A stretch of DNA of 64,000 bases. Origin: Candidatus Saccharimonadota bacterium (GTDB lineage Bacteria > Patescibacteriota > Saccharimonadia > Saccharimonadales > Saccharimonadaceae). This document shows, in pieces, positions 393-62,148 of the stretch (the first letter of the stretch is position 1; each line of letters begins with the position of its first letter). The translations under genes and the position numbers were made by a program. The DNA is taken from positions 65,431-129,430 of the forward strand of contig JAFQYG010000003.1 of NCBI GenBank assembly GCA_017406565.1, written 5' to 3'. Below the pieces are notes generated by a model. That model had not been told where the DNA came from and did no database searches. It was given only the letters and a program-made list of their open reading frames with translations.

Positions 393-2495
393 TTATTTCT
401 TCTCCCCCATAAATTCTTTAATTCGTTCTATTTCGTCTCTTAGAGCTGCTGCTTTTTCGAACTCCAAATTCGCTGCAGCTAGCTGCATCTCGGAAGATAA
501 TTGCTTAATTAGTGCTGGTAATTCATCTTTCGGGATTCGTTTCACATCTAATTGATCAGTCTTTTCTTTTTCTGGGATAATCGCCCGAAGTCCCTTAGAA
601 ATTTCTTTTTGTACTGAATGTGGTTTAATTCCGTGCTTTTCATTGTATTCTTTCTGAATCTCGCGGCGCCGATTGGTCTCTGAAATCGCTTTTTCCATAC
701 TTTCAGTAATATAATCAGCATACATAATAACTTTTCCTTCTTCATGCCGTGCTGCGCGCCCAATCGTTTGAATTAATGCTGATTCAGACCGTAGAAACCC
801 TTCCTTGTCCGCGTCAAGAATTGCTACTAAAGAAACTTCAGGCAAATCCAATCCTTCACGTAGTAGGTTAATTCCCACTAACACATCATAAACTCCTTCA
901 CGCAAATCACGTAAGATGTCACCACGCTCCAAAGTGTCAATATCGGAATGAATATACGCAGTTTTTACGCCACGTTCCTTTAAATGGTCAGATAAATCCT
1001 CCGCCATCCGTTTGGTCAAAGTCGTAATTAATGTCCTCTGCCCTTTAGCGATTCGGCGGTCTATTTCTTCCATTAAATTATCAATCTGACCTTCCGAACC
1101 ACGTACTTCTACTTCAGGATCAAGCAATCCAGTCGGACGAATTACCTGTTCTGCTGGCGCAGGTGATACCTCAAGCTCATATTCTCCCGGAGTTGCTGAT
1201 ACATAAATCGCTTGATTGATATGTTTTTGGAATTCGCCATAAGTCAAAGGGCGGTTATCTAGTGCAGACGGCAAACGAAAACCATGTTCAACCAGTGACA
1301 TTTTTCTGGCGTGGTCGCCATTGTACATTCCGCGTACCTGTGGCAAAGTCATATGCGATTCATCGACAATCAAAAGCCAATCTTTCGGGAAGAAATCAAG
1401 CAAAGTCGCCGGTGGTTCTCCCGCTCGGCGCCCATCTAAATGTCGAGAATAGTTTTCGATTCCCTTCACGAAGCCTGTCTCTTTTAACATTTCCAAGTCA
1501 TATTTAGTGCGCTGACTTAACCTCTGTGCTTCCAAGTATTTTTGATGCTTTTCGAAATATTTCAATCTTTCTTCGAATTCTGCCCTAATTGTCACCAAAG
1601 CTTTTTCTAATTGATCCATCGGCGTCGCATAGTGAGTATTTGGAAAAATATGTATATGATCAGGTTTTTCTCGAATTTCAAAAGTCAGCGGGTCCACGAT
1701 TTTCACCTCTTCCAAAGTGTCAAATCCAAATTCAAATCGATAGGCATATTCTCCGTTGGCTGGATATAAATCAATCGTATCACCCATCACTCGAAAATTA
1801 CCTCGTTCAAATGCCAAATCGTTGCGGTGGTATTGCATTGCCACTAGACGGTGGATGAATTCGAGTTGTGTCAATTTGGGATTTGAAATCGAGAGGTTCG
1901 AGGGGCTTCCGGAGGTTACGACCGAGGGTGAGGGCGCTTCGCCCGTGACGACGGTCCGAAGCGACCCGTCCCCGAGAACTTCCTGATTCAAATCCCAACC
2001 CTGTTCAGTTCGCCACATCGGTAACGACATCTCAGTATAATGGTCTGGCGAACCAATGCCGTAAATACAAGATACGGATGCAATTACGATGCAATCGCGT
2101 CGCGTGAGTAATGCTTCGGTTGCACCGTGTCTCAACCTATCAATCTCGTCATTAATCGCCGAGTCCTTTTCGATATATGTGTCAGTTGAGGCGATATAGG
2201 CCTCTGGCTGGTAATAATCAAAATATGAAACAAAATAGTGTACTTCGTTTTCTGGGAAGAATTCTCTGAACTCTGAATATAGCTGCGCAGCTAGAGTTTT
2301 GTTGTGTGCAAGCACTAGTGTAGGTCGCTGAGTCTTCTCGATAATATTAGCCATCGTGAATGTCTTACCCGAACCAGTCACACCAAGCAATGTCTGTTCG
2401 TGGACATTACGATTAATCCCATCCACGAGTTGCTTAATCGCGGATGGCTGGTCGCCAGTCGGCTGATATTTTGATACTAACTTAAATTTTGCCAT
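393..2495 (-). CDS. uvrB: Excinuclease ABC subunit B, with a ~40-aa in-frame insertion
   Basis: GVTGSGKT Walker [33 protein letters not shown] motifs. Start moved to MAKFKL (2495), which lies 7 nt after TGTTATAAT. Confidence 0.97.
1878..1996 (+). repeat. Palindromic in-frame insertion element in uvrB (type C, antisense to gene)
   Basis: Arms GGGATTTGAA / TTCAAATCCC; inner GGTTC-GA-GGGG ... CCCC-GA-GAAC; encodes [40 protein letters not shown], which is absent from canonical UvrB. Confidence 0.85.
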
Positions 2496-2571
2496 TATAT
2501 AGATTATAACATGGGTACAACAATAAGTATAAGCAACCACTTTTGATAGTTTTATACTATAATAATCATAT

Positions 2572-2790
2572 ATGGCTAAATATATAATTACCGTCAAACC
2601 AGGTTCATCTCAAGAAAAGATTGTTGAATCTACTTCGGGTGAATTAATTGTCTACCTCCGCGCTAAACCACATGATGGTGAAGCAAATACTGCTTTGATC
2701 AAGCTTCTTTCTAAGCATTTTGATATACCTAAGACATCTATCAATATTACTCGTGGTCAAAAATCTCGCGTTAAAACTATCGAATTCTAA
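2572..2790 (+). CDS. DUF167/YggU family protein
   Basis: VKPGSS...[22 protein letters not shown]...RGQKSRVK motif. Confidence 0.85.
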
Positions 2791-2808
2791 ATCACTGATT
2801 ATTTATTA

Positions 2809-4260: not shown

Positions 4261-4280
4261 ATATGTACATTATAACATAA

Positions 4281-16028: not shown

Positions 16029-17285
16029 TTATTTAAACATCCTTTTCCGTTTTAATAGTGAATGATATGTAATCGCAAAACGGTGCGCTTCTTCGTCAAT
16101 GCGAGCGATTAAGCGCGCCACATGGGAATTATTGGATAATTCTATGCTTTTTAAATCTGGAGTAATTAGTTTTGTTTTTGCGTTTCTCGAATGATCACCA
16201 GATTTATTGCGGCCGATTACGGGTATATTATATGGCTCCACTAGCGGTAAAATAGCTTTGACTTGCGTATTTCCTCCATCCAAAATGATTAAATTTGGAA
16301 AATCCCATTCTTGATGTTTCAATCTACGCGACAATACTTCTTGCATACTCTTTAAATCGTCATTTGTAGAAGTGCGTATTTTAAATTTACGATACTCGCT
16401 ACGTGCAGAGGCTCCGTTTAAAAATACTACCATACTGCCGACTGTATTTTTGCCAGCCTGGTGAGATATATCATACCCCTCAATGCGACGTGGCGGTTCA
16501 TCCAATCCAAGCATTTCTTGTAATTGCTTTAAAGCTTGGTCGGAAGATATATCAAGAAATTCTTTATCAGAAAATAAAATTTTTTTCTTCAACTCACGAA
16601 GACCAGCTAGTTGGTCTCTTGCCTCAGCGGCCAACTCGTAATTCCCTTTATCCGATTCGGCACGCATAGTTTTTTCTAAATCCTTTAACAGTTTTTCGCG
16701 GTCGCCCTCTAGATATCTAATTAGTTTTCGGAGGTTTCTCTTATAATCTTTAGGTGTGCTTTTTTCTATCTCGATACCAGGAGTTAACCCAAGATCTGTG
16801 TCTAAAGTTTTATGCCCAGTATAAGGCTTAGTATAATAAGGAAAAATCCGCCTAAGACTTCGAACGGCTTTTTCAATTGCTGATTTTCCGTAAAATGGAC
16901 CAATATAAGTTGCTTTATCATCTACAGGATTTCTGGTGAAGCTGATATATGGCACGTCCTCATTCATTGTGATTCTAACGTATGAAACTGTTTTATCATC
17001 ACGTAGTAAAATATTCCATTTTGGCATATATCTTTTAATCATTTCTGATTCTAAAAACAGCGCATCTATTTCTGTATCTACTACAATCCAATCAGTGTCC
17101 GCAATTTCGCGTACTAGTGCCTCAGTCTTGACATCTTTTTGATTTTTTTGAAAATACTGTCGCACGCGATTTTTGAGCACTGCAGCCTTGCCTACATATA
17201 TTATTTCACCAGCTGAATTTTTATGAAAATATACTCCCGGTGCACTTGGGAGTTTTTTTAGTTTTTGTTTCAAACTATCATTCAT
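16029..17285 (-). CDS. uvrC: Excinuclease ABC subunit C (short, no C-terminal HhH)
   Basis: GIY-YIG (PGVY...IIYVGKA..LKNRVRQYF), RIEGYDISH, LIILDGG, DEEAHRFAITYH motifs. Confidence 0.93.
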   Translation of the reverse strand: MNDSLKQKLKKLPSAPGVYFHKNSAGEIIYVGKAAVLKNRVRQYFQKNQKDVKTEALVREIADTDWIVVDTEIDALFLESEMIKRYMPKWNILLRDDKTVSYVRITMNEDVPYISFTRNPVDDKATYIGPFYGKSAIEKAVRSLRRIFPYYTKPYTGHKTLDTDLGLTPGIEIEKSTPKDYKRNLRKLIRYLEGDREKLLKDLEKTMRAESDKGNYELAAEARDQLAGLRELKKKILFSDKEFLDISSDQALKQLQEMLGLDEPPRRIEGYDISHQAGKNTVGSMVVFLNGASARSEYRKFKIRTSTNDDLKSMQEVLSRRLKHQEWDFPNLIILDGGNTQVKAILPLVEPYNIPVIGRNKSGDHSRNAKTKLITPDLKSIELSNNSHVARLIARIDEEAHRFAITYHSLLKRKRMFK

Positions 17286-17291
17286 ATTATA

Positions 17292-17320
17292 ATTATATCA
17301 CACTTATGGCAAAATGTCAA
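17292..17320 (-). promoter_or_regulatory. Consensus sigma70 promoter of leaderless uvrC
   Basis: TTGACA (17315-17320), 17 nt, TATAAT (17292-17297), 6 nt, ATG. Confidence 0.8.
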
Positions 17321-17326
17321 TTACAA

Positions 17327-24962: not shown

Positions 24963-25073
24963 TAAAATTCCCTCTTAACTTTATTATTATATGGTGCCCA
25001 TTTGCTTACAGCAATAACAAACGAGCTGAAACTCTTACAATAATTATATCACACTTACCCTAAAATGTCTACA

Positions 25074-25106
25074 AAATAGCACTATATATTACATATAGTG
25101 CTATTT
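25074..25106 (-). terminator. Hairpin terminator after tig
   Basis: AAATAGCACTATAT-ATTAC-ATATAGTGCTATTT. Confidence 0.7.
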
Positions 25107-33631: not shown

Positions 33632-33636
33632 TGTTA

Positions 33637-33702
33637 TTTTAAAACACAAAAAATACCCCTGTTAGAGGTTAATTTTTGTGACCCTCCACAAAAATGGTAT
33701 TT
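33637..33702 (+). repeat. ~66-bp direct repeat, copy 1 (double hairpin/terminator)
   Basis: Nearly identical to 34837-34902, offset exactly 1200 bp. Confidence 0.88.
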
Positions 33703-33842
33703 TTGCCAGTCCTCTCTTTGCTTGAGCGTCGTTTTTTTGCCGTCCCTATAAAGTGTGTGCAAAAACACTCCCGTCTCTTTTTGGGTGTGTGCAAAAACCC
33801 TGCCGTCCTATAAACAAGACGCAATGCAAATTTTTTTGAGAA

Positions 33843-34796: not shown

Positions 34797-34836
34797 ACTA
34801 TGATTATAGCATATACTGTATTTACCCTTGTAATTG

Positions 34837-34902
34837 TTTTAAATCATAAAAAATACCCTTGTTAAGGGTTAATTTTTGTGGCCCTCCACAAAAATGGTAT
34901 TT
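34837..34902 (+). repeat. ~66-bp direct repeat, copy 2; includes tRNA-Leu terminator hairpin 34872-34895
   Basis: ATTTTTGTGG-CCCT-CCACAAAAAT and ACCCTT-GTT-AAGGGT immediately 3' of the tRNA CCA. Confidence 0.88.
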
Positions 34903-34903
34903 A

Positions 34904-34987
34904 TGGTGCCCGGGACAGGATTTGAACCTGCACGCTTGAGGCATATGCTCCTAAGGCATACGTGTCTACCAATTCCACCACCCGGGC
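34904..34987 (-). tRNA. tRNA-Leu (TAG)
   Basis: Acceptor GCCCGGG/CCCGGGC-A-CCA; anticodon arm TATGC-CTTAGGA-GCATA; GGTTCAAATCC. Confidence 0.95.
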
Positions 34988-35565: not shown

Positions 35566-35619
35566 ATTAATAAACTCCTTATATTACCATTATATCACAC
35601 TTTTGCTAAAAATGCAAGA

Positions 35620-36135
35620 TTATAACTTAACATAAACGGAAATATGCGCATTTGCATATTTTCGACTACTTTTTAGCACGGTTTCGGAGAATTCTGGTGC
35701 TACATTTGGATGCGATAAAACTAGCAATCCACCCTGTTTTATGCTACCAATTAATTCCTTAATTTCATTTGCATCAAATTTATCATATGGTGGATCCGCC
35801 ACGATGATATCAAAAGGACTATTTGTTGTAAAATTTACAACATTGTCACAAATTACTTCTGCAGAAAGCCCCAATTTAGCTAAGTTACCTCTGATTACTT
35901 TACATACCTTAGCATTTTTCTCAATAAAAACTACTTCATTTGCTCCCCGTGATAAAGCCTCTATTCCTAGAGCTCCAGAACCAGCATAAGCATCTAGTAC
36001 TCTTGCCCCTGATAAATTTCCCGCAATCATATTAAAAAGCGCCAGTTTTTCCCTTGCACCCATCGGATGAGTCGACTTAGAATTTGGTGACTCTATATTT
36101 GTCCCGCGATATTTACCAGATGTAATCTTTATCAT
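35620..36135 (-). CDS. rsmD: 16S rRNA m2G966 methyltransferase RsmD family
   Basis: ITSGKYRG, VLDAYAGSGALGIEALSRGA, ADPPY motifs. Confidence 0.9.
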   Translation of the reverse strand: MIKITSGKYRGTNIESPNSKSTHPMGAREKLALFNMIAGNLSGARVLDAYAGSGALGIEALSRGANEVVFIEKNAKVCKVIRGNLAKLGLSAEVICDNVVNFTTNSPFDIIVADPPYDKFDANEIKELIGSIKQGGLLVLSHPNVAPEFSETVLKSSRKYANAHISVYVKL

Positions 36136-38536: not shown

Positions 38537-38602
38537 GACTATCCCCTCCAACCGGAGGGGCATTTTTTGCGAAAAATGCAAAAATATAGTATAATATCAA
38601 AC

Positions 38603-39361
38603 ATGATTAAGTTTACTATTATCACTCTGTTCCAAGAGGCTCTGAAGCCTTATTTAGAGTCCTCAATGATGTACAAGGCTGCTCATAAAGGTCTTGTGGA
38701 GTTTAATTTTGTAGACTTACGCGAATTTGGTCTTGGCCCTCACAAATCTGTCGATGATACGCCTTACGGTGGTGGTGATGGGATGTTACTTAGATGCGAA
38801 CCAGTTTTTAATGCTATCGAATCGGTAAAAAAGAAAGATTCTAAGGCCAAAGTCATCCTTCCTACTCCTGTGGGTGATATCTGGAACCAAGATATGGCTA
38901 GAAAGTTTGCGAATGGGCAAGCAGAATCTTTTTCGAGGAGCATATTTTCCGACGTGGAAAATACGGAACGACCGAGCCCCTTAGGCGAGGGTGCGAGGGA
39001 GCGTTCCGAGAAAAACGATTCTTCTTGCCACTATGTAATCCTCTGCCCTCATTATGAGGGGTACGATGAACGTATCTTAAGCATTGTAGACTATAAAGTA
39101 TCCCTGGGTAAATATGTTCTTACTGGCGGCGAATTGCCAGCTCTTATCATCATTGATTCGGTTGTTCGCTTAATACCAGGGGTGCTTGGTGGCGAAAACT
39201 CAGCTGCGATTGAAAGCTTTTCTGATGGAGATAATTTAGAGTATCCTCAGTACACCAAACCATATGATTTTCGCGGCATGACAGTGCCAGACGTGCTACT
39301 CTCTGGTAATCATGGCGAAATCGCTAAATGGCGCAAACAACACTCCGGCAAAGCAAAATAA
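38603..39361 (+). CDS. trmD: tRNA (guanine37-N1)-methyltransferase with in-frame insertion
   Basis: VDDTPYGGGDGM, CPHYEGYDER, SLGKYVLTGGELPA, VPDVLLSGNH motifs; start moved to MIKF. Confidence 0.97.
   Translation: MIKFTIITLFQEALKPYLESSMMYKAAHKGLVEFNFVDLREFGLGPHKSVDDTPYGGGDGMLLRCEPVFNAIESVKKKDSKAKVILPTPVGDIWNQDMARKFANGQAESFSRSIFSDVENTERPSPLGEGARERSEKNDSSCHYVILCPHYEGYDERILSIVDYKVSLGKYVLTGGELPALIIIDSVVRLIPGVLGGENSAAIESFSDGDNLEYPQYTKPYDFRGMTVPDVLLSGNHGEIAKWRKQHSGKAK
38917..39028 (+). repeat. Palindromic in-frame insertion element in trmD (type A, sense)
   Basis: 78-nt core 38933-39010 TCGAGGAGCATATTTTCCGACGTGGAAAAT...GAGCGTTCCGAG; arms GCAAG.AGAATC.TTTT / AAAAA.GATTCT.CTTGC. Confidence 0.92.
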
Positions 39362-40122: not shown

Positions 40123-40232
40123 TTGACTCACCCCCTTTCGTTCCACGTATCGATCTTAAAGTACTTGTCTAGAAGACGCTATATCCTCATATTATAGCAC
40201 AAACTTTATAAAAAGTCAATATTATGCTTTAA

Positions 40233-41726
<1,494 letters not shown>

Positions 41727-44442: not shown

Positions 44443-46269
44443 TTACTCTTTTTTATCGCTAGATTCTTCTTTGTTTTCTTCGCTTTTTTCTTCGTCATCG
44501 CCTTCTTCTTGCTGCTCTTCATCTTTTGGCTTGATATCATTACCATCTTGATCTTTAACTTCAAACTTTACTGAAATCTTATTAGTATTGCCTGGAATTG
44601 CCATTACCCAAGGATAAGAAGCGTCAATTCTCACATCTGACACACCGTTAATATCCGAAATCTCACGACGAGCGTCACCAATTCCTTTACCCTTAATCTT
44701 GTCCATCAATTCTTCTGAAGTTAGCCTTGGACCAACAAAGTATTGAGCTTTCAATTTTGTGGTAGCCCCTACGGCGATATGGGTCATATTTTCAATATAG
44801 ATATCTTTGATATCATATACTTTTTGGTTATCTTCGAGTTTTGCTTTATTATCGACGTACTCTTCCAATTTAACTTTATCAATCACATAAACTGTGGAAG
44901 TAGTTTTGACTTCTAGGGATGGCTTAGTCCCCTCTTTAACTTCTTCGTCGACAGCAGGCGTTACTATATCATTAGAAGTTGATTGTTCAAAACTCGATTC
45001 AATAATGTAGTATTTATCACCGCTCTCTTCTTTGATCTTTTCGAAGAGTTTGGTTTTATTTTCCTCTTCTTTCGAAGATTTAATTTGATTTTGAGCGGCA
45101 ATCACATCAGATTGCTGAACCACAGTAATCAAATTATCGGTCCCACCAGCCATTGCTCTATCAGAGTATACGCCGTCTACACGTGCAACTGCAGTCCAGC
45201 CGGTATTAGAAGCAAGTATATTATACTTTTCACCTGCACCGCCAGCAGTGACCTTAACTCGACCAGAGATTAAACAGCCAGAACGAATTAAACTTACAAC
45301 ATTTTCTGCATTATCACATTTGTCGCTACCATTGCCTTTATATGATAATGTAATATTTTCATCGGCGTAGAATGATAAATTGTCATAAGAAAAGGCTGTT
45401 CCTGCATTAATTGGCACATTACCAGGTTCTTCAAAATAAGCGTATACTACTAAGTCGCCAGTTGCCTTCTCTCCGATATTCTTTTTACCTGTCGCTTCAA
45501 ATTCGACTTTTTGAGTTTCCTCGATTTTCTTTTGTTCTAAGAAGAATTTACCCTCCTCAGCATTTTCATCTTCTAACTTATCAACAAAAGTCACATTTTC
45601 GGAGAAATTCTTCTTCTCCGTCTTAATTGAAACCGTAATATCTACAGCCGGAGCAATGAAGATCATCCAAATTAGAAGTCCAACAATACCAAGTGCACAA
45701 ATACCTGCTAAAATCGATAGTTTTTTATGCTCTTTTATCCACTTCTTCAAACCACCAGATTTTTTGGATTTTTTCTTATCTTTCTTCTTTGGTTTCTCTT
45801 CTTCCTCTCCCTCATCTTCGTCATCGTCTTCATCCTCATCGTCTTCATCAGCTTCTTCATCCTCTTCCTCTTCTTCATTTTTTTTCTTCTTCTTTGACTT
45901 TTCTTCTTCCTCTTCTTCGGCTTCAATATCACCATCTTTATCTTCGACTAATTCAGCTTTTTCGGAAGTGTCATCAGAATCTTCTTCGTCTATTTTTGGT
46001 ACTGATGGTGCAGACTGTAAATTCTTAGCTACGGGTAATTTGGTCGCCGCAGCTAGTTTCGTAATAGACGGATCCACAGTTACTAACACTACAGATTTCT
46101 CAGACGATACTCCAGCTTTTGCAATCAACTTAATATTCACCACGCTCCTAAAAACGCCAGCCTTTTTTGGCGGTACGAGCGCCACGATTTTTTCTTTTGA
46201 GTTTTCAATTTTAAGGATGATATCAGTAATGTCATCCTCAGGCTCAATATAAATCACGTCTTTATTCAT
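44443..46269 (-). CDS. Membrane protein with acidic/basic low-complexity tract; baseplate J-like C-terminal region
   Basis: VIYIEPEDDITDII N-terminus; E/D/K tract; TM; KATG.L.VY, V.A...GEKYNI, GG.D motifs typical of proteins annotated baseplate J/gp47-like. Confidence 0.55.
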   Translation of the reverse strand: MNKDVIYIEPEDDITDIILKIENSKEKIVALVPPKKAGVFRSVVNIKLIAKAGVSSEKSVVLVTVDPSITKLAAATKLPVAKNLQSAPSVPKIDEEDSDDTSEKAELVEDKDGDIEAEEEEEEKSKKKKKNEEEEEDEEADEDDEDEDDDEDEGEEEEKPKKKDKKKSKKSGGLKKWIKEHKKLSILAGICALGIVGLLIWMIFIAPAVDITVSIKTEKKNFSENVTFVDKLEDENAEEGKFFLEQKKIEETQKVEFEATGKKNIGEKATGDLVVYAYFEEPGNVPINAGTAFSYDNLSFYADENITLSYKGNGSDKCDNAENVVSLIRSGCLISGRVKVTAGGAGEKYNILASNTGWTAVARVDGVYSDRAMAGGTDNLITVVQQSDVIAAQNQIKSSKEEENKTKLFEKIKEESGDKYYIIESSFEQSTSNDIVTPAVDEEVKEGTKPSLEVKTTSTVYVIDKVKLEEYVDNKAKLEDNQKVYDIKDIYIENMTHIAVGATTKLKAQYFVGPRLTSEELMDKIKGKGIGDARREISDINGVSDVRIDASYPWVMAIPGNTNKISVKFEVKDQDGNDIKPKDEEQQEEGDDEEKSEENKEESSDKKE

Positions 46270-46317: not shown

Positions 46318-47991
46318 ATGAGCTTATTTAAGTCCAAAAATCAGTCTGGAAAGTCCGCTGGTAATCATGCGGCCTTAGCTGAGATTGCTTTAAATAGTAT
46401 CCACGACGGAGTAGTAATGACCGACGGTAGAGGCACTATTCAGTTTATCAATCCTGCTGCTGTTACTATGACCGAATGCGAAACAGCTGACAAGGCCATC
46501 GGACTAGATTATGGCTTGATTATTCGGATTGAATCCAAAGAAGGACGTGAATTACCCGATAACGAAAACCCGCTCATTCGAGCTATGAAGACCAACCAGC
46601 CACTCGAAAAAGCCCAAGTAGCTTTAATTTGCACAAAATCTAATAAGCGTATCCCAATTGCCATTTCTGTACACTCGGTTGAGGGCTCTACGGATAGTCA
46701 TATTATTACTTTTCGCGATATTGCCCGTGAATTAGAAGAAGAAGGCGAACAGGCTGAGTTTATCTCTACAGCTTCGCATGAAATGCGTACACCAGTAGCC
46801 ACGATCGATGGTTACCTATCTCTAGCACTTAATCCCAAGACATCAACTATTGATGAACGTGCCCGCGGTTATCTCTCTTCAGCACAAGCCGCTTCCAAAC
46901 ACCTCGGTAAATTATTCCAAAATCTGCTCGACATCACCAAACTCGATGATGGCAGGATAAGACCTCATTTTGTGCCGGTTGAAATGATAGAAGAAATCAA
47001 AGTAATCACTGATGATTATATTGAACGTGCCAAAGAGAATAAGATTACTTTCAACTATGGTTCTAGCCAGAAACTTTCTTTCGATAGCAATCGTCGTCTC
47101 GCACAAGTAGTTTATAGTTTTGTCGATCGTGATTTCCTACGCGAAGTAATGGACAATTTGATTGAAAATGCCCTAAAATATACTCCAGAAGGTGGTTCAG
47201 TTTATGTTAACGTTCGTGGTGATGGAGATAGAGTTGTAATCAATGTGACAGACACTGGCATTGGCATATCCGCTGATGACCTTGGCCACATTTTCCAAAA
47301 ATTCTATCGAGCAGATAATTCTGATACTAGAGAAATAGGCGGTACTGGCCTTGGCTTGTACTTAGTCAAACAACGTGTTGAAGCAATGGGTGGTAAAGTT
47401 TGGGCTGAGTCCGCTTTTGGTGATGGTTCAACGTTTTATGTCTCTTTGCCTAGACTTACAGAAGACGAATATAATAAAAGGATGATTGCTGTGCAAAATC
47501 AAGATATGATTGAAGACAAAAAACCTCCAGTCATTCCACCAATCACGGTGGCTCCAGCAGCTGAGCCGGCTGCACCAACAACTCCTACTACACCCACTGA
47601 ACCAGCTGCGCCTGTAGCACCTGTAGAACAGGCTAATCCCACACCTACGCCAACCCCTACACCTGTACCAACAACTCCTCCAGCCCCTGTCGCTCCAACG
47701 GCTTCAGCTACGCCTGCCGCTCCAAAACCAGCGGCTACGACACCTACGCCTGTGAACCCTAGCCCCGCTCCAACGCCAAACGCAACCCCAACTCCAACCC
47801 CAGCCCCTGTCTCTACCACGGCTCAGGCTGTTGCGACCCCACCTGCATCATCAACCGCAAATCCTACCCCTATACCACCACCTCAGCCAAGTGCAGGGCA
47901 AAATACAATCTCTTCCCCTCCACCTGCACCACCAACTACTAACCCAGTACAACAAAATATTAATAATAACGTAAACGGAGAAGCAAAATGA
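46318..47991 (+). CDS. Soluble PAS sensor histidine kinase with Pro/Thr/Ala-rich tail
   Basis: PAS (DGVVMTDGRGTIQFINPAA), ASHEMRTP, NLIENALKYT, DTGIGI, GTGLGL motifs. Confidence 0.93.
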   Translation: MSLFKSKNQSGKSAGNHAALAEIALNSIHDGVVMTDGRGTIQFINPAAVTMTECETADKAIGLDYGLIIRIESKEGRELPDNENPLIRAMKTNQPLEKAQVALICTKSNKRIPIAISVHSVEGSTDSHIITFRDIARELEEEGEQAEFISTASHEMRTPVATIDGYLSLALNPKTSTIDERARGYLSSAQAASKHLGKLFQNLLDITKLDDGRIRPHFVPVEMIEEIKVITDDYIERAKENKITFNYGSSQKLSFDSNRRLAQVVYSFVDRDFLREVMDNLIENALKYTPEGGSVYVNVRGDGDRVVINVTDTGIGISADDLGHIFQKFYRADNSDTREIGGTGLGLYLVKQRVEAMGGKVWAESAFGDGSTFYVSLPRLTEDEYNKRMIAVQNQDMIEDKKPPVIPPITVAPAAEPAAPTTPTTPTEPAAPVAPVEQANPTPTPTPTPVPTTPPAPVAPTASATPAAPKPAATTPTPVNPSPAPTPNATPTPTPAPVSTTAQAVATPPASSTANPTPIPPPQPSAGQNTISSPPPAPPTTNPVQQNINNNVNGEAK

Positions 47992-48545
47992 GTAAAATAA
48001 TGGTAGTCGAAGACGACGCAAACCTACGAGAAATCTACAGTGTCCGCATTACCGCCGAAGGCTACGATGTGGTGCCAGCAGGTGATGGCGAGGAGGCTCT
48101 TGCCATTGCGGTGCGTGAGAAACCAGATTTAATTTTGTCAGACGTTATGATGCCTAAAATCTCCGGCTTTGATATGCTAGATATTTTGCGCTCCACACCA
48201 GAGACCGCCAGCATTAAAGTCGTCATGATGACCGCTCTTTCTGGCGATGATCAACGCCAACGTGGCGAACGCTTAGGCGCCGACCGCTATCTTGTTAAAT
48301 CCCAAGTCGGCATCGAAGATGTAATTAGTACTATCCACGAAGTGCTTGGCGATGCTCCAGCTACTGCTTCTGCGGATGCATCGTCCACCACTTCCTCCGT
48401 CTCCTCAACTTCTACGTCTACACCAACAGAAGCCCCGACAACCCCACCAACTCCAACCACTACAGCATATACCCCACCACCAGTACTTTCAGGTGAACCA
48501 ATCCCCCAGGTAAATAATGGACAATCAGTCGCTCCGGCTCAATAA
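47988..48545 (+). CDS. Response regulator receiver protein with low-complexity tail
   Basis: IMVVEDD, PDLILSDVMMP..SGF, YLVK motifs. Confidence 0.92.
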   Translation: MSKIMVVEDDANLREIYSVRITAEGYDVVPAGDGEEALAIAVREKPDLILSDVMMPKISGFDMLDILRSTPETASIKVVMMTALSGDDQRQRGERLGADRYLVKSQVGIEDVISTIHEVLGDAPATASADASSTTSSVSSTSTSTPTEAPTTPPTPTTTAYTPPPVLSGEPIPQVNNGQSVAPAQ

Positions 48546-49323
48546 ATTTCTTGCCGAACGCCTTGGTGTTTCACGTCGCGAAGCCGACGAGTTAATTAGT
48601 GTCGGAAAAATTACGGTAAATGGTGAAAAAGCTGTTTTGGGTGTTCGTATTGACAAAAAAAGCAAAGTATGCTATAATAACAAGATAGTTCCGTTTGATA
48701 CGGAATTTTCTTATTTTGCATTTAATAAACCGGTTGGATATGTTTGCTCACGGCGCGCTCAAGGTCAAGCTCCTACTATTTACACATTATTACCTGAGAA
48801 ATTCCAAAAACTAAAAACCGTCGGTCGTCTCGATAAAGACAGTTCCGGTCTGATTTTACTTACCAATGACGGTGATTTTGCTTTCCAAATGACGCACCCC
48901 AAATTCCGCAAAACCAAAACCTATCAAGTTGAACTCGATAAGCCATTAGAACCACTCCACCGACAGATGATCTCGGATTTCGGTGTTATGCTTGACGACG
49001 GCCCCAGCCGATTTAAGATAATAAAAGATGTATTCCCCGAAGCTAATAAAACTTCTTTTGAAGGGGATCCGGAGCCTGGCAAGGCGAGGAGTAGCGCCAC
49101 AACCCCTGTGTCGACAGGGGTTGTGGACGCGCCCCGAAAAAGAAGTTTTTTAGCTAAAGCAAAAAATGCATATACGGTTATATTGACCGAAGGCCGTAAT
49201 CGTCAAATTCGCCGAACTTTTGCTGCACTTGGTTATAAAGTCACCAAGCTTCATCGTATCAGCTTCGGAAAATACGAATTAAACGATTTAAAGCCCGGTA
49301 AATATGTTATAATTGAACCATGA
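48517..49323 (+). CDS. RsuA/RluB-family rRNA pseudouridine synthase with in-frame insertion
   Basis: S4 domain (RLNKFLAE.LGVSRREAD), VGRLDKDSSGLILLTNDG, EGRNRQIRR motifs. Confidence 0.93.
   Translation: MDNQSLRLNKFLAERLGVSRREADELISVGKITVNGEKAVLGVRIDKKSKVCYNNKIVPFDTEFSYFAFNKPVGYVCSRRAQGQAPTIYTLLPEKFQKLKTVGRLDKDSSGLILLTNDGDFAFQMTHPKFRKTKTYQVELDKPLEPLHRQMISDFGVMLDDGPSRFKIIKDVFPEANKTSFEGDPEPGKARSSATTPVSTGVVDAPRKRSFLAKAKNAYTVILTEGRNRQIRRTFAALGYKVTKLHRISFGKYELNDLKPGKYVIIEP
49041..49155 (+). repeat. Palindromic in-frame insertion element in the pseudouridine synthase (type B, sense)
   Basis: 81-nt core 49058-49138, nearly identical to the obgE element 1 core; hairpin CCACAACCCCTGT-GTCG-ACAGGGGTTGTGG; arms AGCTAA.AAAACTTCTTTT / AAAAGAAGTTTTTTAGCT. 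Confidence 0.92.
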
Positions 49324-55227: not shown

Positions 55228-55316
55228 AATACGCCCCCTTCCTAGCTCAAAAAGCAAGATATCTACATTATATCACAAAATTGCAAAAAAGTCAATAGTA
55301 AACATAGCCATTTTGG

Positions 55317-56176: not shown

Positions 56177-57334
56177 TTACACAATTATCCCACCACCGAG
56201 GCAAACCTCGCCATCATACAATACGGCAGATTGTCCGCTTGCGGGGCGTTTGATTTCTTTTCCAAAATGCAATGTCTTGCCATCAAAAGTTGCTGGGATT
56301 AGCGGTGCTCGATGGCGTAATCTAACTTGCACACTACTATTTACATCTTGATGTAGCAATATATCTTTCAATTCCAACTCTTTCGTCCAGATTGCTTCAT
56401 GATTTAAGTTTTTTGATACGTAAACAATATTATTTTTGATGTCTTTCTTTACCACATAATACGGCATTCCATCATTCACGGTGCCTTTTTCACCATTTAA
56501 GTATAAGCCATGCCTTTGTCCGATCGTATAAAACACCGCACCTTCGTGATATCCTAATACTTTTTCACTTTCAATTTCACGAATCTCACCAGGCTCAATA
56601 TCGATGTATTCTTTAAGAAAATCTTTCATCCCAACTTCACCCACAAAACATACACCCATAGATTCTTTTTTATAAGCATTGTGCAGCCCATGTTTCTCAG
56701 CTAGTTTCTTCACTTCTGGTTTCAACATTTCTCCAATCGGAAAAATCGTATGTGCCAATGCCTCATCTGAAATACGGTATAAAAAATACGTTTGATCTTT
56801 ATTTTCGTCTACTGCACGCATGAGTAGGGTCTGTTCAGATAATTCTTGGCTCGGGGTATTCCGGAGCGCGGCAGCGCGAGGGTTAGCGCGCTCGCCCCGT
56901 GGCGACGGGCGCGAGCGACGCGACCCCGAGTAAGAATTATCTGATAGAGTTTTAATGCGAGCATAATGTCCAGTAGCAATATAATCAGCCCCCGCCTCCA
57001 TAGCTTTTTCATAAAACAGTTTAAACTTAATTTCTTGATTACACATAATGTCGGGATTTGGTGTATTGCCTTTTTTAAATTCATCTAACATATATTCCAC
57101 AACTTTTTCACGATATGCATTTTCAAAATCCCAAACTTCAAAATCAATGCCAAGTTTTACTGCCACGCGTTTTGCATCAGCTAAATCTTCTGCCCAAGGA
57201 CACTTCATCCCGGGTAAATCTTGTGACCAGTTTTTCATATAAACACCAATCACGCAATATCCTTGCTCCTTCAAAAGTAAAGCCGAGACACTCGAATCAA
57301 CACCGCCACTCATCCCCACATATACTTTTTTCAT
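56177..57334 (-). CDS. mnmA: tRNA-specific 2-thiouridylase with in-frame insertion
   Basis: GMSGGVDSSV, NPDIMCNQEIKF, ATGHYAR, KDQTYFL, KKESMGVCFVG, GQSAVLY motifs. Confidence 0.97.
   Translation of the reverse strand: MKKVYVGMSGGVDSSVSALLLKEQGYCVIGVYMKNWSQDLPGMKCPWAEDLADAKRVAVKLGIDFEVWDFENAYREKVVEYMLDEFKKGNTPNPDIMCNQEIKFKLFYEKAMEAGADYIATGHYARIKTLSDNSYSGSRRSRPSPRGERANPRAAALRNTPSQELSEQTLLMRAVDENKDQTYFLYRISDEALAHTIFPIGEMLKPEVKKLAEKHGLHNAYKKESMGVCFVGEVGMKDFLKEYIDIEPGEIREIESEKVLGYHEGAVFYTIGQRHGLYLNGEKGTVNDGMPYYVVKKDIKNNIVYVSKNLNHEAIWTKELELKDILLHQDVNSSVQVRLRHRAPLIPATFDGKTLHFGKEIKRPASGQSAVLYDGEVCLGGGIIV
56835..56944 (+). repeat. Palindromic in-frame insertion element in mnmA (type C, antisense)
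   Basis: 13-bp perfect arms TCAGATAATTCTT / AAGAATTATCTGA; CTCGGGG / CCCCGAG; inner GCTCGC.CCCGT-GGCG-ACGGG.GCGAGC. Confidence 0.92.
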
Positions 57335-58992: not shown

Positions 58993-60231
58993 TTATTTAC
59001 TAATCCTTTTTTGTTCGTTTTTGATTACGGAATTAATAATTGAAGCTGCTTCGTGGATTTGTTCTTCATTATTCATTTCACCAAAAGTGATTCTTAGTGA
59101 CCCAGTAATTTGTTCTTCTGTCAATCCAATTGCTTTTAGTACATGTGATTTTTCACCTTTAGATGCTGCACAGGCTGCACCAGTTGCCACATATACGCCC
59201 TCTTCTTCAAGCAGAAATATCAATCTTTCTGCATCCAAACCCGGGAAGCTTACCACTACGAAATTATCCAAGCAATGCTTTTTATTAATTAATTCATAAC
59301 CACTAAGTTCTGATAGTAGTATCTTACGCCAAGATGCATATTTTTTGCGATTTCCATTTAAATGCTCTTTGGCAAGTTCTATAGCTTTCGCAAACCCAAT
59401 CACGCCAGGCACATTTTCCGTACCCGAGCGTAAGCCCTTCTCCTGTCCGCCGCCCAAAGTCAAGGGTTTTAGTTTTGCGTCATGTGAAACATACAGAGCT
59501 CCCACACCTTTCGGCCCATAGACTTTTGCTGCATTTAAAGTTAAAAGGTCCACTCCAAGTCTAGCCACGTTTATATCCAGTAGATTTAAAGCTTGCGAAG
59601 CATCGGAATGAAGTAATAATTGTGTTTTTATCCCTCTTTTCATTCGGTCGATTTTGATTTCGCGAATAATACTAGCAATTTCTGCCATAGGTTGGATTGT
59701 ACCGAGCTCGTTATTAGCTAAAGATACCGAAATCATTTGCGTATCATCGGTAATTTTTGCTTTCAAATCATCCAAATCAATTAGCCCATTAGATAAAACC
59801 TTCACCGCTTGACCACCGTAACTATCTGCTACCGCTCTGACCGATTCATGTTCCGTTTCCAAGTACAATAGACGCGAAGGATGCCCTCGTTCGAGGAGCA
59901 TATTTTCCGACGTGGAAAATACGGAGCGACCGAGCCCCGTAACGACGGGCGCGAGGGAGCGTTCCGAGAACGATGGGCAACTTCGTGTCTGTATAGCTGT
60001 AAACGCAAGATTATTCGCTTCTGTCGCTCCAGCCGTTATCACGAGATCTGATGCTTTAGCACCTACCGCATGTGCAATCACACCCTTAGCGTTTTCGTAA
60101 TCAGCTGCTACTTTTTTAGCCGGCAAATAAGCTGCAGAAGGATTAAAGAAATCAACCGAAAAATACGGCCTCATCGCCTCTAAAACTTTATCAGAAACTG
60201 GCGTAGCCGCCGCATGGTCAAGGTAAATCAT
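58993..60231 (-). CDS. iscS: Cysteine desulfurase IscS/NifS with in-frame insertion
   Basis: IYLDHAAATP, TAGATEANN, HSDASQA, AAKVYGPKGVG, RSGTENV, TGAACA motifs. Confidence 0.95.
   Translation of the reverse strand: MIYLDHAAATPVSDKVLEAMRPYFSVDFFNPSAAYLPAKKVAADYENAKGVIAHAVGAKASDLVITAGATEANNLAFTAIQTRSCPSFSERSLAPVVTGLGRSVFSTSENMLLERGHPSRLLYLETEHESVRAVADSYGGQAVKVLSNGLIDLDDLKAKITDDTQMISVSLANNELGTIQPMAEIASIIREIKIDRMKRGIKTQLLLHSDASQALNLLDINVARLGVDLLTLNAAKVYGPKGVGALYVSHDAKLKPLTLGGGQEKGLRSGTENVPGVIGFAKAIELAKEHLNGNRKKYASWRKILLSELSGYELINKKHCLDNFVVVSFPGLDAERLIFLLEEEGVYVATGAACAASKGEKSHVLKAIGLTEEQITGSLRITFGEMNNEEQIHEAASIINSVIKNEQKRISK
59870..59990 (+). repeat. Palindromic in-frame insertion element in iscS (type A, antisense)
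   Basis: 78-nt core 59891-59968; arms AGAC.CGAAG..TGCCC.TCGTTC / GAACGA.GGGCA.CTTCG.GTCT. Confidence 0.93.
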
Positions 60232-60249
60232 AAGAATATTATAACATAT

Positions 60250-60720: not shown

Positions 60721-60729
60721 ACCTCTATT

Positions 60730-61086
60730 TTAGCAATAGAGTTTTGTTTTGACAAGGTTCAGATAACCTTTAGCGGCTTTACGAAAATTATCCAATTCCT
60801 CGCCAGTGATTTTTTCATAATTACCACCAGCTGGTTTTTTGAATACACCAGTGGGACGAACCTCGTAACGCACAGTCATCTCTTCTAACTTACCAGCGTT
60901 ATTTACGAAACTTTCATGCCAAATCCATACATTACGGCGCGATTCAAAAAATTCTCGTCGATGTCCTTCTGGGATTGGACCAAACAAAGTCCTACCAAGT
61001 GCAGACTCAGCGTTGATCAAATCTTCATAGCTAAAACCATTGTTATAGCGTCCAGAACTAAAACCTAGCAATTTCGTAAGCGACAT
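60730..61086 (-). CDS. Conserved-looking hypothetical protein
   Basis: LINAESALGRTLFGPIPEGHRREFF...WIWHE; overlaps the upstream small ORF. Confidence 0.72.
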   Translation of the reverse strand: MSLTKLLGFSSGRYNNGFSYEDLINAESALGRTLFGPIPEGHRREFFESRRNVWIWHESFVNNAGKLEEMTVRYEVRPTGVFKKPAGGNYEKITGEELDNFRKAAKGYLNLVKTKLYC

Positions 61087-61205
61087 TCTTCAATCTCCTC
61101 TGCAATGGCATTTAACTCTTTGTACACTTCAAAAGTATCATTCGTAGCACCAAAATCATAGGTGTTACGATTTCCAAATGATGGTACAATAAACTCAGTA
61201 TTCAT
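61065..61205 (-). CDS. 46-aa small ORF absent from ORF track
   Basis: MNTEFIVPSFGNRNTYDFGATNDTFEVYKELNAIAEEIEECRLRNC*; TGCTATAAT 6 nt before ATG; fills the gap between tatD and the 60730 ORF. Confidence 0.6.
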   Translation of the reverse strand: MNTEFIVPSFGNRNTYDFGATNDTFEVYKELNAIAEEIEECRLRNC

Positions 61206-61236
61206 AATCTAATTATAGCACAAAAAGTTTAAAAAG

Positions 61237-62148
61237 TCAATGCTTATAATCAAAACTATTTAGTCTGTAAAGGTTTTCAACATTTTCAGAGGTAATAGCA
61301 GCAACTTCTTCCTGGGGCATATCAAGCTTCTCAGCTAACCATTTTGCGATATCAGCAATATAAGCCGGCTCATTAGTACTACCCCTGTGAGGAATCGGCG
61401 CCAAAAACGGCGCATCGGTCTCTAATAATATTCTTTCCAGGGGTGGAGTAGGTAAAGTCGAATAAGTCGCCAATCCATTTACGCCGACATAGAACTCTGT
61501 TTCATTCAAAATACGCTTCAGCACCTTTTTGCTATCTGTAAAAGAATGCACTACGCCACGAACCTTCGGGAAATTCTCTATAATAGGGAAAAAATCTGCA
61601 AATGCTTCTCTGATATGAAAAGACACCGGTAAGTCATTATCGACAGTCAATTGTAGCATCTGTTCGAACAATTTAATCTGTGCTTCTCGATTGTAGCCGT
61701 CATAATGGTAATCTAGGCCAACTTCTCCGATTGCTACAAGGCGAGAAAAAAGTCCTTTCTCGGAACGCTCCCTCGCGCCCTCGCCTAAGGGGCTCGGTCG
61801 CTCCGTATTTTTCACGTCGGAAAATATGCTCCTCGAAAGGACATTTTCTTCTCGCCCTGTTTCCTCTGGATGAATACCATACGTCCAATACACTCCATCA
61901 TGGGTCATTGCGAAATCTCGTGCCACCAAAGAATCTTCTGGATCTGTCCCGATACAAATAATTTTCTCAACTCCCGCTTCATGTGCTCGTTTTACGCAGG
62001 CTTCAGCTTCCTCAGCGCTAAAGAATTGTGGGTCATGTAAATGACAATGGCTATCAATAAGAATCGGGAAACCCTCTTTTGAGGACCGTAAGCTCGGCCG
62101 AACGGCCTTGAGTGTGTCCGAGGAAGAGGGCTTTTGATCCTCAGGCAT
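61237..62148 (-). CDS. tatD: TatD family hydrolase with two palindromic insertions
   Basis: IDSHCHL, GIHP, AIGEVGLDY, FHIREA, GVVHSF, LETDAPFLAP motifs. Confidence 0.95.
   Translation of the reverse strand: MPEDQKPSSSDTLKAVRPSLRSSKEGFPILIDSHCHLHDPQFFSAEEAEACVKRAHEAGVEKIICIGTDPEDSLVARDFAMTHDGVYWTYGIHPEETGREENVLSRSIFSDVKNTERPSPLGEGARERSEKGLFSRLVAIGEVGLDYHYDGYNREAQIKLFEQMLQLTVDNDLPVSFHIREAFADFFPIIENFPKVRGVVHSFTDSKKVLKRILNETEFYVGVNGLATYSTLPTPPLERILLETDAPFLAPIPHRGSTNEPAYIADIAKWLAEKLDMPQEEVAAITSENVENLYRLNSFDYKH
61740..61856 (-). repeat. Palindromic in-frame insertion element in tatD (type A, sense)
   Basis: 78-nt core 61759-61836 is the reverse complement of the trmD core with few changes; arms GCGAGAA..AAAGTCCTTTC / GAAAGGAC.TTT..TTCTCGC. 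Confidence 0.93.
62063..62138 (+). repeat. Short palindromic element forming the tatD N-terminal extension (type D, antisense)
   Basis: CCCTCTTTT-GA-GGAC ... GTCC-GA-GGAAGAGGG enclosing GGCCG-AA-CGGCC; same tandem GA signature. Confidence 0.7.

Follow-up and report, generated by a model that had tools for sequence, protein, structure and literature searches.

GC-rich palindromic elements lying in frame in conserved genes of Saccharibacteria: a family resembling mobile DNA

Introduction

Rickettsia palindromic elements (RPEs) are short palindromic repeats of a reduced genome that lie in frame in a large number of unrelated housekeeping genes and also occur between genes, and they are presumably translated and tolerated at surface positions of the proteins (PMC10969869). 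The elements described here, which belong to Saccharibacteria, resemble RPEs in each of these respects. Bacterial MITEs (such as Correia, ERIC, BOX and RUP) share with them a small size, a non-coding and repeated nature and an occasional intragenic position (PMC10969869).

A preliminary description of a 64 kb stretch of DNA from a Saccharibacteria genome (hereafter the window, always meaning the whole stretch that was analysed) had proposed that nine GC-rich hairpin elements are inserted in frame in seven conserved enzyme genes, and had read them as a non-autonomous mobile-element family that might be undescribed. Here, we follow up this proposal in the window and in relatives' windows of at most ~20 kb. 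The mobile-element reading is supported by empty alleles, by further copies and by the RPE-like behaviour, and no earlier description of the family was found in the literature. The word non-autonomous, in turn, holds insofar as 75-125 bp are too short to code for an enzyme, and is supported in no wider sense.

Results

All nine elements were found at the positions given for them and in the frame of their hosts, and they are one family. Their GC content is 52-65%, as compared with 40% for the window, and each of them folds into a long hairpin, with z-scores from -3.6 to -10.2 relative to dinucleotide shuffles, none of which (0/200) folded as well. The identity of the seven host genes was confirmed by their Pfam domains, namely UvrB, TrmD, Obg, S4 with PseudoU_synth_2 (RsuA/RluB-type), MnmA, class-V aminotransferase (IscS/NifS-type) and TatD; apart from the domains of the host enzymes, Pfam detected nothing in the element-bearing proteins. 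All host ORFs stay open through their elements and gain 26-42 residues (~25-40 had been estimated), and the division into five sense and four antisense copies proved correct.

In each copy, a conserved, GC-rich core of ~80 nt is enclosed by an outer stem that is variable (median length, ~19 bp). The element junction, T-T-C-G-A-G ... C-C-G-A-G-A-A, forms tandem G.A pairs, and inward of it a short closing helix is followed by two inner hairpins that make up the rest of the core. The equal core lengths reported before were reproduced: the four type-A cores measure 80 nt (TTCGAGG to CCGAGAA) and the two type-B cores 83 nt, the earlier values of 78 and 81 nt reflecting a boundary that differs by one base trimmed per side. 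The cores in uvrB and mnmA, regarded previously as related to type B, are by alignment homologous to both B and A via a common inner hairpin. The tandem G.A motifs and the loop sequences are kept in all core types. The P4 stem is 93.8% paired, with changes on both sides in 82 cells versus 23 in shuffles and wobble pairs in 7 of 465 cells; generally, the stems switch among Watson-Crick pairs and wobble intermediates are nearly absent. Moreover, in 31 of 32 copies one strand folds ~10 kcal/mol better than its complement, owing to the conserved tandem G.A pairs and purine-rich loops.

The uvrB gene (393-2597, minus strand) carries a type-U element at 1878-1996, on the plus strand and thus antisense, which adds ~40 aa in frame after the conserved Trp of domain 2; its fold has a z-score of -4.7, the covariance model matches it at 1892-1982 (63.5 bits, E = 1.4e-12), and the uvrB orthologues of two relatives (L043 and L039) are without it. 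Within trmD (38567-39361, plus strand), a sense type-A copy on the plus strand at 38917-39028 (covariance model E = 1.3e-11) has a left arm (38917-38935) that is the inverted copy of its right arm (39010-39028). The site is empty in the relative L001 (94% aa identity), where the gap amounts to 96 nt and the right arm is already present. Two sense copies, both on the plus strand, lie in obg (40263-41726, plus strand). At site 1, the right arm (40653-40675) of a type-B element (40552-40675; E = 1.9e-17) corresponds to the native Obg codons ERIFLADL and the left arm (40552-40574) to their inverted copy; an empty allele occurs in L002, and on B. subtilis Obg (1LNZ) the insert maps between residues 101 and 103. 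The structure model of Obg was poor (mean pLDDT 47). At site 2, which is the linker after the G domain, a type-A element (41335-41459) shows a 25 bp outer stem, a fold z-score of -9.2 and E = 2.5e-16, and in other species this linker is occupied by type A, C, U or M, or is empty.

The gene of the RsuA/RluB-type pseudouridine synthase (48517-49323, plus strand) contains a sense type-B copy at 49041-49155 on the plus strand, 92% identical over 108 nt to the copy at obg site 1; in L001, the right third of the element alone remains at this site. In mnmA (56177-57334, minus strand), an antisense type-M element on the plus strand (56835-56944; E = 1.5e-17) occupies a beta-hairpin turn ahead of the LLRAVD motif. 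This site is polymorphic in the sampled populations, measuring 18-25 nt in related strains (runs X13, X5 and X21) versus 135-142 nt in the window. The IscS/NifS-type class-V aminotransferase gene (58993-60231, minus strand) has an antisense type-A copy on the plus strand at 59870-59990 (E = 7.2e-16), whose core is, in the alignment rows, of the same type A as the obg site-2 copy of L003; the outer stems of these two copies are related as judged by eye. Finally, tatD (61237-62148, minus strand) holds two elements. The sense type-A copy at 61740-61856 (minus strand; E = 6.1e-13) is the sole copy of the window with its G-rich strand on the minus strand, and shows 90% complementarity, across 99 nt, to the copy in trmD. 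The other, a short type-T derivative at 62063-62138 (plus strand, antisense), spans codons 4-29 of the ORF and has the same junction motif, one inner hairpin and a fold z-score of -3.6. It is the only one of the nine that the covariance model misses, the remaining eight being detected with E = 1e-11 to 1e-17; nhmmer relatives of the type-T element are found in frame in other genes (L007 at 18634 and L012 at 3103).

Scanning relatives with the covariance model yielded ~140 further copies in related genomes and metagenomes. The first search covered the window and 82 Saccharibacteria obg loci; it returned 44 copies from the window and the 42 closer loci (L001-L042), and none from the 40 more distant lineages. 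The second gave 99 matches in 80 metagenome loci and two loci of the window organism (L203 and L206), the metagenome scan contributing ~80 additional copies, and 61 of 79 metagenome copies fall within ORFs of at least 100 aa. Altogether, 98 genic copies represent ~48 sites in 42 host gene families, among them the DNA-repair genes uvrB (in the window) and uvrC (L101 and L119), and intergenic copies are also present. At the same sites, comparison of the host genes with their orthologues revealed alleles that are empty, nested, hybrid or reduced to a deletion remnant; obg site 1, followed through 120 orthologues, is found empty, with several core types, and as hybrids, remnants and nested forms. 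Some copies are old and inherited, for example type B at obg site 1. An assembly artefact is excluded by the presence of the elements in NCBI, ENA, JGI and Logan assemblies that are independent of one another; read depth over them is 3-8 times that of their flanks, and metagenome contigs break off at them.

The copies use both orientations and five of the six frames, in line with the earlier statement that the inserts lie in different frames, and every genic copy is in frame and free of stops. No conserved peptide is encoded when the five frames and both orientations are compared; as one core serves in five frames, the peptide that results is arbitrary filler. Copies occur solely where they are tolerated, either in intergenic DNA or, within genes, in frame at positions that correspond to surface loops and beta-hairpin turns of the protein. 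Their intact frames suggest that the inserts are translated. Inteins were considered and rejected, as they need conserved splicing blocks and at least ~130 aa, and the inserts are variable low-complexity peptides of 26-42 aa. Whether the inserts are spliced out, a question raised by the preliminary description, was addressed with RNA-run contigs of one metatranscriptome, which may contain DNA: they keep the elements joined to the flanking coding sequence, one of them (59946-60173) running from the IscS/NifS-type element into its flank, and no splicing was seen. The sole apparent skips in these contigs carry the filler sequence of other strains' empty DNA alleles. Rfam gave no match at the gathering threshold, nor at E up to 10.

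The outer stem includes native codons of the host, which pair with their own inverted copy. In obg and trmD, native codons of the right flank reappear in the left arm as their reverse complement. The copy follows each species' own codons: five species have the same pair of 1-nt indels in the left arm at obg site 1, and every left arm still mirrors the codons of its own species. The two arms undergo concerted evolution. The pseudouridine-synthase copy contains the native ERxFLA(D) codons of Obg: its right arm, GAAAAAGAAGTTTTTTAGCT, matches the native Obg sequence GAAAGAATCTTTTTAGCTGA and is not derived from its own gene. The presence of the Obg flank in this copy indicates that the whole hairpin moves, and is copied to new sites, as a unit. 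Filled and empty alleles of trmD and of obg site 1, when compared, show no target-site duplication, the flank copy being inverted and not direct, nor is any common flanking tetranucleotide apparent. Conserved terminal repeats are likewise absent, as the termini (the outer stem) vary by copy and are partly host sequence, the interior alone being conserved. In all four resolvable cases (a fifth, L138, is ambiguous), it is the arm 3' of the G-rich strand that is native, on the side that the fork reaches first.

The orientation of the elements tracks GC skew (79 vs 12 overall), irrespective of the direction of transcription. The bias is seen per gene family (27 vs 5, p = 1e-4), is equal for sense and antisense copies, and appears in the metagenome copies as a G-rich strand lying on the C-rich genome strand (47 vs 7, p = 2e-8). 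Since orientation follows the replication strand and ignores transcription, the elements act at the DNA level and not at the RNA level. The bias could reflect differential survival of copies rather than their insertion.

The absence of a transposase from the window, noted previously, was upheld by Pfam and NCBIfam, which found no transposase, integrase, HUH or RT domain in the window ORFs examined, several of which had no match at all. Transposase domains are also missing from the 10 kb past the right-hand end of the window and from the L001 and L002 gene tables, and no full-length parent IS occurs in any of these or in the window. The element motif was found in 0 of 2.9 million viral contigs.

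Discussion

Taken together, our results lead us to favour, with a probability of about 0.55, the view that the elements are translated selfish DNA palindromes ('foldback' mini-elements) of animal-gut Saccharibacteria, which are spread and homogenised by replication template switching. A nascent strand that has just copied the hairpin would fold back or switch template during replication. Arm mismatches would thereby be corrected, and we propose that the free arm consequently tracks the arm constrained by host coding; the palindrome would also grow outward, as an inverted copy of the first-replicated flank is added, and a switch to another locus or element would produce new insertions and chimeric cores without target-site duplication. 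Such a model would need no dedicated enzyme, but would leave room for one. Template switching makes and repairs hairpin stems (PMC8794818), and quasipalindrome correction in E. coli is strand-biased (PMC7202029). Pure template-switch correction should, however, erase the G.A mismatches; hence, their conservation, and that of the loop sequences, points to selection for a specific folded strand or for a protein partner. We put forward only tentatively the stricter version, in which the family is a transposase-free mobile DNA palindrome that uses nothing but template switching at the fork. A palindrome of this kind would propagate, repair itself, grow into its flanks and ferry pieces of essential genes between genes, with the host replisome as its 'enzyme', and new loops would continually be seeded in conserved proteins.

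A REPIN- or IS200/IS605-like process, in which a single-copy HUH transposase (Y1/RAYT-type) encoded elsewhere recognises the folded single strand of the core, seems rather unlikely to us. The core would then be moved via single-stranded DNA at the fork, and template switching would explain the later arm correction alone. Such an enzyme would account for the strong replication-strand bias and the missing target-site duplications, as well as for the lack of conserved terminal inverted repeats and the retention of the junction motif in all core types; furthermore, the better-folding strand is what a structure-specific protein would read. However, neither an HUH nor any other transposase domain turned up in the window, to its right or in the two gene tables, the viral contigs lack the motif, and the strand expected on the lagging-strand template is the poorer folder. 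Besides, the ends of HUH elements are fixed by enzyme cleavage sites, whereas the mobile unit here has a variable, partly host-derived outer stem.

The hairpins might instead be retained for the benefit of the host, either as useful DNA signals (replication-oriented signals like the polar motifs that direct chromosome handling, signals for uptake or recombination in cells that naturally scavenge DNA, or sites at which replication pauses) or since the added loops serve the proteins. Architecture-imparting sequences typically show strict strand polarity, stem pairing is kept across long divergence at orthologous sites, and copies reside in the repair genes uvrB and uvrC. Nevertheless, we give this idea little credence: mutational bias can keep pairing without selection (PMC8794818), the elements are patchy among close relatives, with empty alleles and decaying remnants, the family is missing from most Saccharibacteria lineages, and the peptides change with frame and orientation. 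It is highly improbable, in our judgement, that the elements operate at the RNA level, be it through removal from the message (small introns or translational bypass elements) or through regulation by hairpins in the mRNA. Their compact three-way-junction folds, tandem G.A pairs, tetraloops and covarying stems would suit such a role, and yeast mitochondria do have bypassed GC-rich hairpins; yet frames kept open in all genic copies would be needless in a sequence removed from the message, and the better-folding strand is the mRNA strand in just 16 of 29 copies. Moreover, orientation tracks replication and not transcription, the stems are nearly without wobble pairs, Rfam yields no match, and the elements are still present in the RNA-run contigs. 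Ordinary vertically inherited, lineage-specific loops would agree with the clearly old type-B copies at obg site 1, but this explanation, like that of an assembly artefact, is refuted by the same core recurring in 42 unrelated gene families and between genes, by empty alleles, by the many independent assemblies and by the raised read depth, which leaves both with practically no probability.

Bacteria of the Candidate Phyla Radiation have tiny genomes and are thought to be poor in mobile DNA. Nine elements per 64 kb would correspond to the order of a hundred copies in a genome of this size, and hosts such as obg, trmD, uvrB, uvrC and mnmA are essential or highly conserved in other bacteria. The host-derived, co-evolving stems and the replication-strand polarity offer a concrete and testable model of how palindromes may spread and persist without classical transposition. 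The same process would make new surface loops in conserved proteins, and thus provide a natural experiment in the gain of insertions by enzymes. In practical terms, metagenome assemblies break at the elements and protein lengths are inflated by them; in Saccharibacteria, orthology, phylogenetic markers and the design of primers could also be confused.

Among known systems, REPIN/REP-RAYT elements share with the Saccharibacteria family ~100 nt multi-copy hairpins, a conserved structure, the lack of target-site duplications and an expected strand specificity. REPs are extragenic and have a conserved stem with GTAG or CGTC heads (PMC3733652), whereas the elements described here have a conserved interior and a variable stem and are mostly intragenic, with no RAYT seen in the sequence examined. 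Strand-specific orientation without target-site duplication is also common to IS200/IS605-type elements; this fits other mechanisms too and is not sufficient alone, and that type has fixed left and right ends with subterminal hairpins and inserts next to a specific 4-5 nt target, in contrast to variable ends with transduced host sequence. MITEs, as deletion derivatives of DDE insertion sequences, share terminal inverted repeats that are conserved, carry target-site duplications and have a parent IS; nothing of the kind was found in the sequence examined. The elements depart from a classical MITE, as the interior alone is conserved, terminal inverted repeats are not shared and the flank copy is inverted and not direct. 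Mitochondrial GC clusters, double-hairpin elements and repetitive hairpin-forming elements are likewise GC-rich mobile hairpins of AT-rich compact genomes, and these also merge, shuffle and nest, conserve stem pairing and have an unknown transposition mechanism (PMC4478555, PMC2800124); they differ in being organellar, mostly intergenic and unrelated in sequence, with putative target-site duplications (PMC4478555).

Quasipalindrome template-switch mutagenesis makes reverse-complement copies and perfects imperfect palindromes in a strand-biased manner (PMC8794818, PMC7202029). It matches both the arm tracking and the inverted flank copies of the Saccharibacteria elements. To our knowledge, it has been known as point mutation at fixed loci and not as the spread of a repeat family. 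RPEs belong to a different phylum, and the Saccharibacteria family is compared with them here by their described features. RPEs are ~150 bp long and each of their families reportedly has a conserved peptide, whereas the Saccharibacteria core is read in five frames; unlike RPEs, the Saccharibacteria elements have a variable outer stem that is partly of host origin, two arms that evolve in concert, an orientation biased by replication strand and a core that is rich in GC within an AT-rich genome.

Results

The preliminary description had claimed nine GC-rich segments with palindromic structure, equal core lengths within types A and B and open host frames in the window, the overall GC content of which is 40%. 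All nine were found where it had placed them, and each contains a long hairpin (z = -3.6 to -10.2 versus shuffled controls); between fixed junction motifs, the four type-A cores measure 80 nt and the two type-B cores 83 nt, and the inserts are read through in every ORF, adding 26-42 residues. By Pfam, the hosts are UvrB, TrmD, Obg, a protein with S4 and PseudoU_synth_2 domains, MnmA, a class-V aminotransferase and TatD. The closest named relatives of the window Obg protein are Candidatus Saccharibacteria, and the window occurs in sequencing runs of gut metagenomes, several of which bear a sheep or bovine label.

Each copy is composed of four parts: an outer stem (P1), a junction, a short GC closing helix adjoining it, and two inner hairpins that complete the core. 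P1 is variable (median of ~19 paired bases, maximum of ~35); the junction, TTCGAG...CCGAGAA, is conserved and includes two tandem G.A pairs, and the short tatD copy retains it with a single hairpin. Since core types A, B, M, U and C can be aligned via the second inner hairpin (P4), they constitute one family. Pairing in P4 reached 93.8%, 82 cells were changed on both sides versus 23 in shuffles (0/500 shuffles as high), and the covariation score was 0.47 versus 0.02-0.08 in slid controls. Wobble pairs occupy only 7 of 465 P4 cells; such intermediates would be expected to be commoner if P4 were a selected RNA helix. An Rfam search at the gathering threshold yielded two tRNAs and nothing else, and relaxing it to E = 10 added no credible match; hence, no known RNA family matches. 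In some elements, a second GC-rich hairpin of ~36-40 nt (e.g., CGCTCGCCCCTTGGGACGCGAATTGCCGAAGGCAAAC) is nested in the P4 loop, as in the Saccharibacteria obg loci L005 (10309-10434 and 19054-19179) and L007 (9298-9423); it encodes the peptide DRPLGRGRP in two Obg proteins (P0056, P0094) and may represent a separate mini-element family targeting hairpin loops.

A covariance model of the family matched 44 copies in the window together with the closer 42 of 82 Saccharibacteria obg loci, which are mostly animal-gut MAGs, many from sheep, goat and yak, and zero copies in the 40 more distant loci. One of the closer loci, L040 (CAZLOX010000347.1), is a contig of 1.3 kb that carries the label of an uncultured Lachnospiraceae MAG and the Obg of which is of Saccharibacteria type (66% identity to that of the window); it is probably mis-binned. 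In a pattern scan of metagenome contigs, the family was carried by at least 75 loci (75 of the 80 listed), all on low-GC contigs, whereas a scan of viral contigs with the inner-hairpin pattern yielded zero matches. Four pattern matches at 66-73% GC (L107, L135, L142 and L158), with neither the architecture nor a covariance-model match, were dismissed as chance, and L134 (58% GC) was treated likewise, its architecture being absent and its score just 24 bits (E = 0.002).

The 98 genic copies are distributed over 42 host gene families at about 48 sites, as clustered with the elements masked, because element-encoded peptides otherwise link unrelated proteins; several further copies are intergenic. 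Among 120 orthologues, obg site 1 (40552-40675 in the window) is empty in some and otherwise holds at least three core types, a hybrid of B and A, remnants of internal deletions, or copies that are nested or duplicated; type A at this site is known from protein alone and was left out of arm comparisons. The trmD copy is absent from the closely related locus L001 (94% amino acid identity), the pseudouridine-synthase copy is reduced there to its right third, and element-free mnmA alleles occur in related strains. Moreover, contigs end at elements, where read depth is several-fold above that of the flanks. The repeats are thus a single mobile family with hybrid and nested copies, and the earlier inference of a mobile-element family is supported by the empty trmD, mnmA and obg site-1 alleles and the 42 host gene families.

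Depending on the core, three to five of the six frames lack stop codons; hosts use five of the six, and the metagenome copies lie in both sense (37) and antisense (24) orientation to the host gene. The family thus encodes no conserved peptide. Given that many frames and both orientations are used, the in-frame state is best regarded as a survivorship filter. Insertion positions are permissive where they can be mapped: obg site 1 is flanked by residues 101 and 103 of the B. subtilis protein (1LNZ), and obg site 2 (41335-41459) just past the last aligned G-domain residue. The AlphaFold model of Obg is poor (mean pLDDT of 47), with low-confidence inserts and no predicted secondary structure in them, and at this low confidence both inserts are predicted to be unstructured and placed between flanking strands. 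In tatD, the short hairpin within 62063-62148 fills codons 4-29 of the ORF, directly 3' of the sole in-frame ATG and upstream of the canonical conserved TatD start, LIDSHCHL; either it is a translated N-terminal extension or a non-canonical start codon 3' of the hairpin is used.

In 31 of 32 copies, the purine-rich core strand is more stably folded than its complement, by ~10 kcal/mol, but it serves as the mRNA strand in just 16 of 29. Element orientation follows the local GC skew, not the mRNA strand. The G-rich strand of the element coincides with the C-rich strand of the genome in 34 of 40 copies counted from the table of genome loci, in 47 versus 7 copies of an independent metagenome set (p = 2e-8) and in 79 versus 12 overall; the bias persists by gene family (27 versus 5, p = 1e-4) and is present in the sense and antisense classes alike. 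In L013 and L014, where the skew of the obg locus is opposite, the element in obg is flipped. GC skew is negative across the whole window and, by our own count, the minus strand holds about 45 of its 59 large ORFs, so the plus strand is assigned as the lagging strand; element orientation is coupled to replication. In RNA-run contigs, elements are joined to flanking coding sequence and no splicing was seen, a weak negative because the run may contain DNA. Apparent 'skips' of the mnmA element in RNA run X21 were rejected as splice junctions: their filler is identical to that of empty DNA alleles in other strains, which makes them allelic variants. Hence, the repeats behave as DNA.

Host sequence makes up part of the stems. 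In the related locus L002, the empty obg allele reads TATAAAGTCAAC directly followed by CAAGAAAGAATCTTTTTAGCTGATTTA; in the window, the right arm at obg site 1 consists of the native codons ERIFLADL, generally conserved in Obg, and the left arm is the reverse complement of these codons. Similarly, the trmD insert (96 nt) consists of the core and a 19-nt inverted copy of the flank, and inverted-flank arms also accompany the obg site-1 copy of L006, which has another core type (a left arm), and an antisense type-M copy in trmD. Filled versus empty comparisons at obg site 1 and trmD revealed no direct target duplication, indicating insertion without target-site duplication. The native arm is on the 3' side of the G-rich strand in 4/4 cases that can be resolved; with the lagging-strand assignment, this is the side first reached by the fork. 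For type B at obg site 1, an identical pair of 1-nt left-arm indels common to five species argues for a single ancestral insertion; the left arms nevertheless mirror the right-arm codons of their own species (ATCTTTTTGGCTGAT, ACCCTTTTGGCTGAC, TCCCTTCTGGCTGAT, ATTCTAATTGCTGAC), so the free arm tracks the coding-constrained arm and the two co-evolve.

Stem and core also move together. Over 108 nt that take in the stem, the copies in the pseudouridine synthase and at obg site 1 share 92% identity, and the right arm of the synthase copy and the L001 remnant GAAGCTTTTTAGCTGA match native Obg GAATCTTTTTAGCTGA. Synthase orthologues without the element lack this arm sequence; a fragment of the Obg coding sequence thus moved into another gene. 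We claim flank transduction for this case only. The type-A copies at obg site 2 and iscS have a related stem of ~20 bp, as judged by eye, and a BLAST search for further flank transduction, with outer-stem arms as queries and masked loci as targets, recovered the same copies from other samples and otherwise just near-noise matches of 14-16 nt. The tatD copy, the short arms of which are ~75% similar to those of the trmD copy, might possibly descend from it. In a type-M copy at obg site 2 (L011, 1263-1389), the outer stem contains GAAGCTGAAAACGGC, an exact match to the native Obg codons EAENG (window 40455-40469) ~290 codons upstream in the same gene; with 15 nt and E = 0.009, the match is either fortuitous or the product of a short-range template switch inside this gene.

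Other features of the window

A GC-rich stretch at 47.5-47.9 kb was rejected as an element, being the Pro/Thr/Ala-rich tail of a histidine kinase. This low-complexity tail (47500-47990, 3' end of ORF 46318-47991; ~150 aa, ~60% GC) is 47 aa longer than in L001, which marks it as a rapidly evolving region with no relation to the hairpin family. ORF 44443-46269 (-) encodes an acidic Glu/Asp-rich low-complexity product of 608 aa with no Pfam match on record; long runs of 9-nt period, TCTTCTTCA on the plus strand, extend over 44464-45918.

ORF 30929-33631 (+) contains a tandem repeat (32172-33499; 14.9 copies of a 90-nt unit, 75% matches), and its 900-aa product carries seven DUF285 repeats (Mycoplasma-type) and one Listeria-Bacteroides repeat, making it probably a variable surface protein. 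Diverged inverted repeats at 30234-30403 and 31391-31560 (170 nt, 70%) link this gene to the oppositely oriented surface-protein gene 29054-30850, and another pair (37-145 and 29170-29278; 109 nt, 74%) links the window start to 29.2 kb; both are probably paralogous repeat domains on opposite strands. A 72-nt direct repeat (33634-33705 and 34834-34905, 89% identical), the second copy of which adjoins tRNA-Leu(TAG), brackets a 1.2-kb segment whose sole ORF (33843-34796, -; 317 aa) has no Pfam or NCBIfam match. This segment may be a small integrated island or, alternatively, a duplication of intergenic sequence. Finally, an AT-rich intergenic motif, ATTATA[G/T]CACAAA ... AAAAGTCAAT, recurs upstream of many genes on both strands (sites include 17284-17325, 25035-25076, 35581-35622, 40183-40224, 55259-55300 and 61210-61241) and is probably the promoter or leader consensus of the organism.

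Discussion

We infer that replication template switching accounts for most features of the family at once. The nascent strand, having passed the hairpin, would fold back on itself or, alternatively, switch to another element copy. Template switching makes reverse-complement copies and perfects stems (PMC8794818), and it is strand-biased in E. coli (PMC7202029). A serious rival is mobilization by a HUH-type enzyme encoded elsewhere in the genome: the conservation of the G.A motifs and loops points to one folded strand that matters, either for stability or to a protein. However, domain searches detected no transposase in the window, in agreement with the preliminary description, nor in the 10 kb past its right end or the gene tables of L001 and L002.

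We found no description of the family in the literature on Saccharibacteria or the Candidate Phyla Radiation. The family differs from MITEs, as tests for their conserved terminal repeats and target-site duplication revealed neither, from REP/REPIN sequences in lacking their extragenic location and conserved stem, and from IS200/IS605 elements in lacking fixed ends. Nearest in behaviour are the GC-rich hairpin repeats found in AT-rich mitochondrial genomes (PMC4478555, PMC2800124) and the Rickettsia palindromic elements (PMC10969869), although, unlike the latter, the present family uses many frames. Host-flank stems, flank transduction and replication-strand polarity are not mentioned for such elements in the literature consulted.
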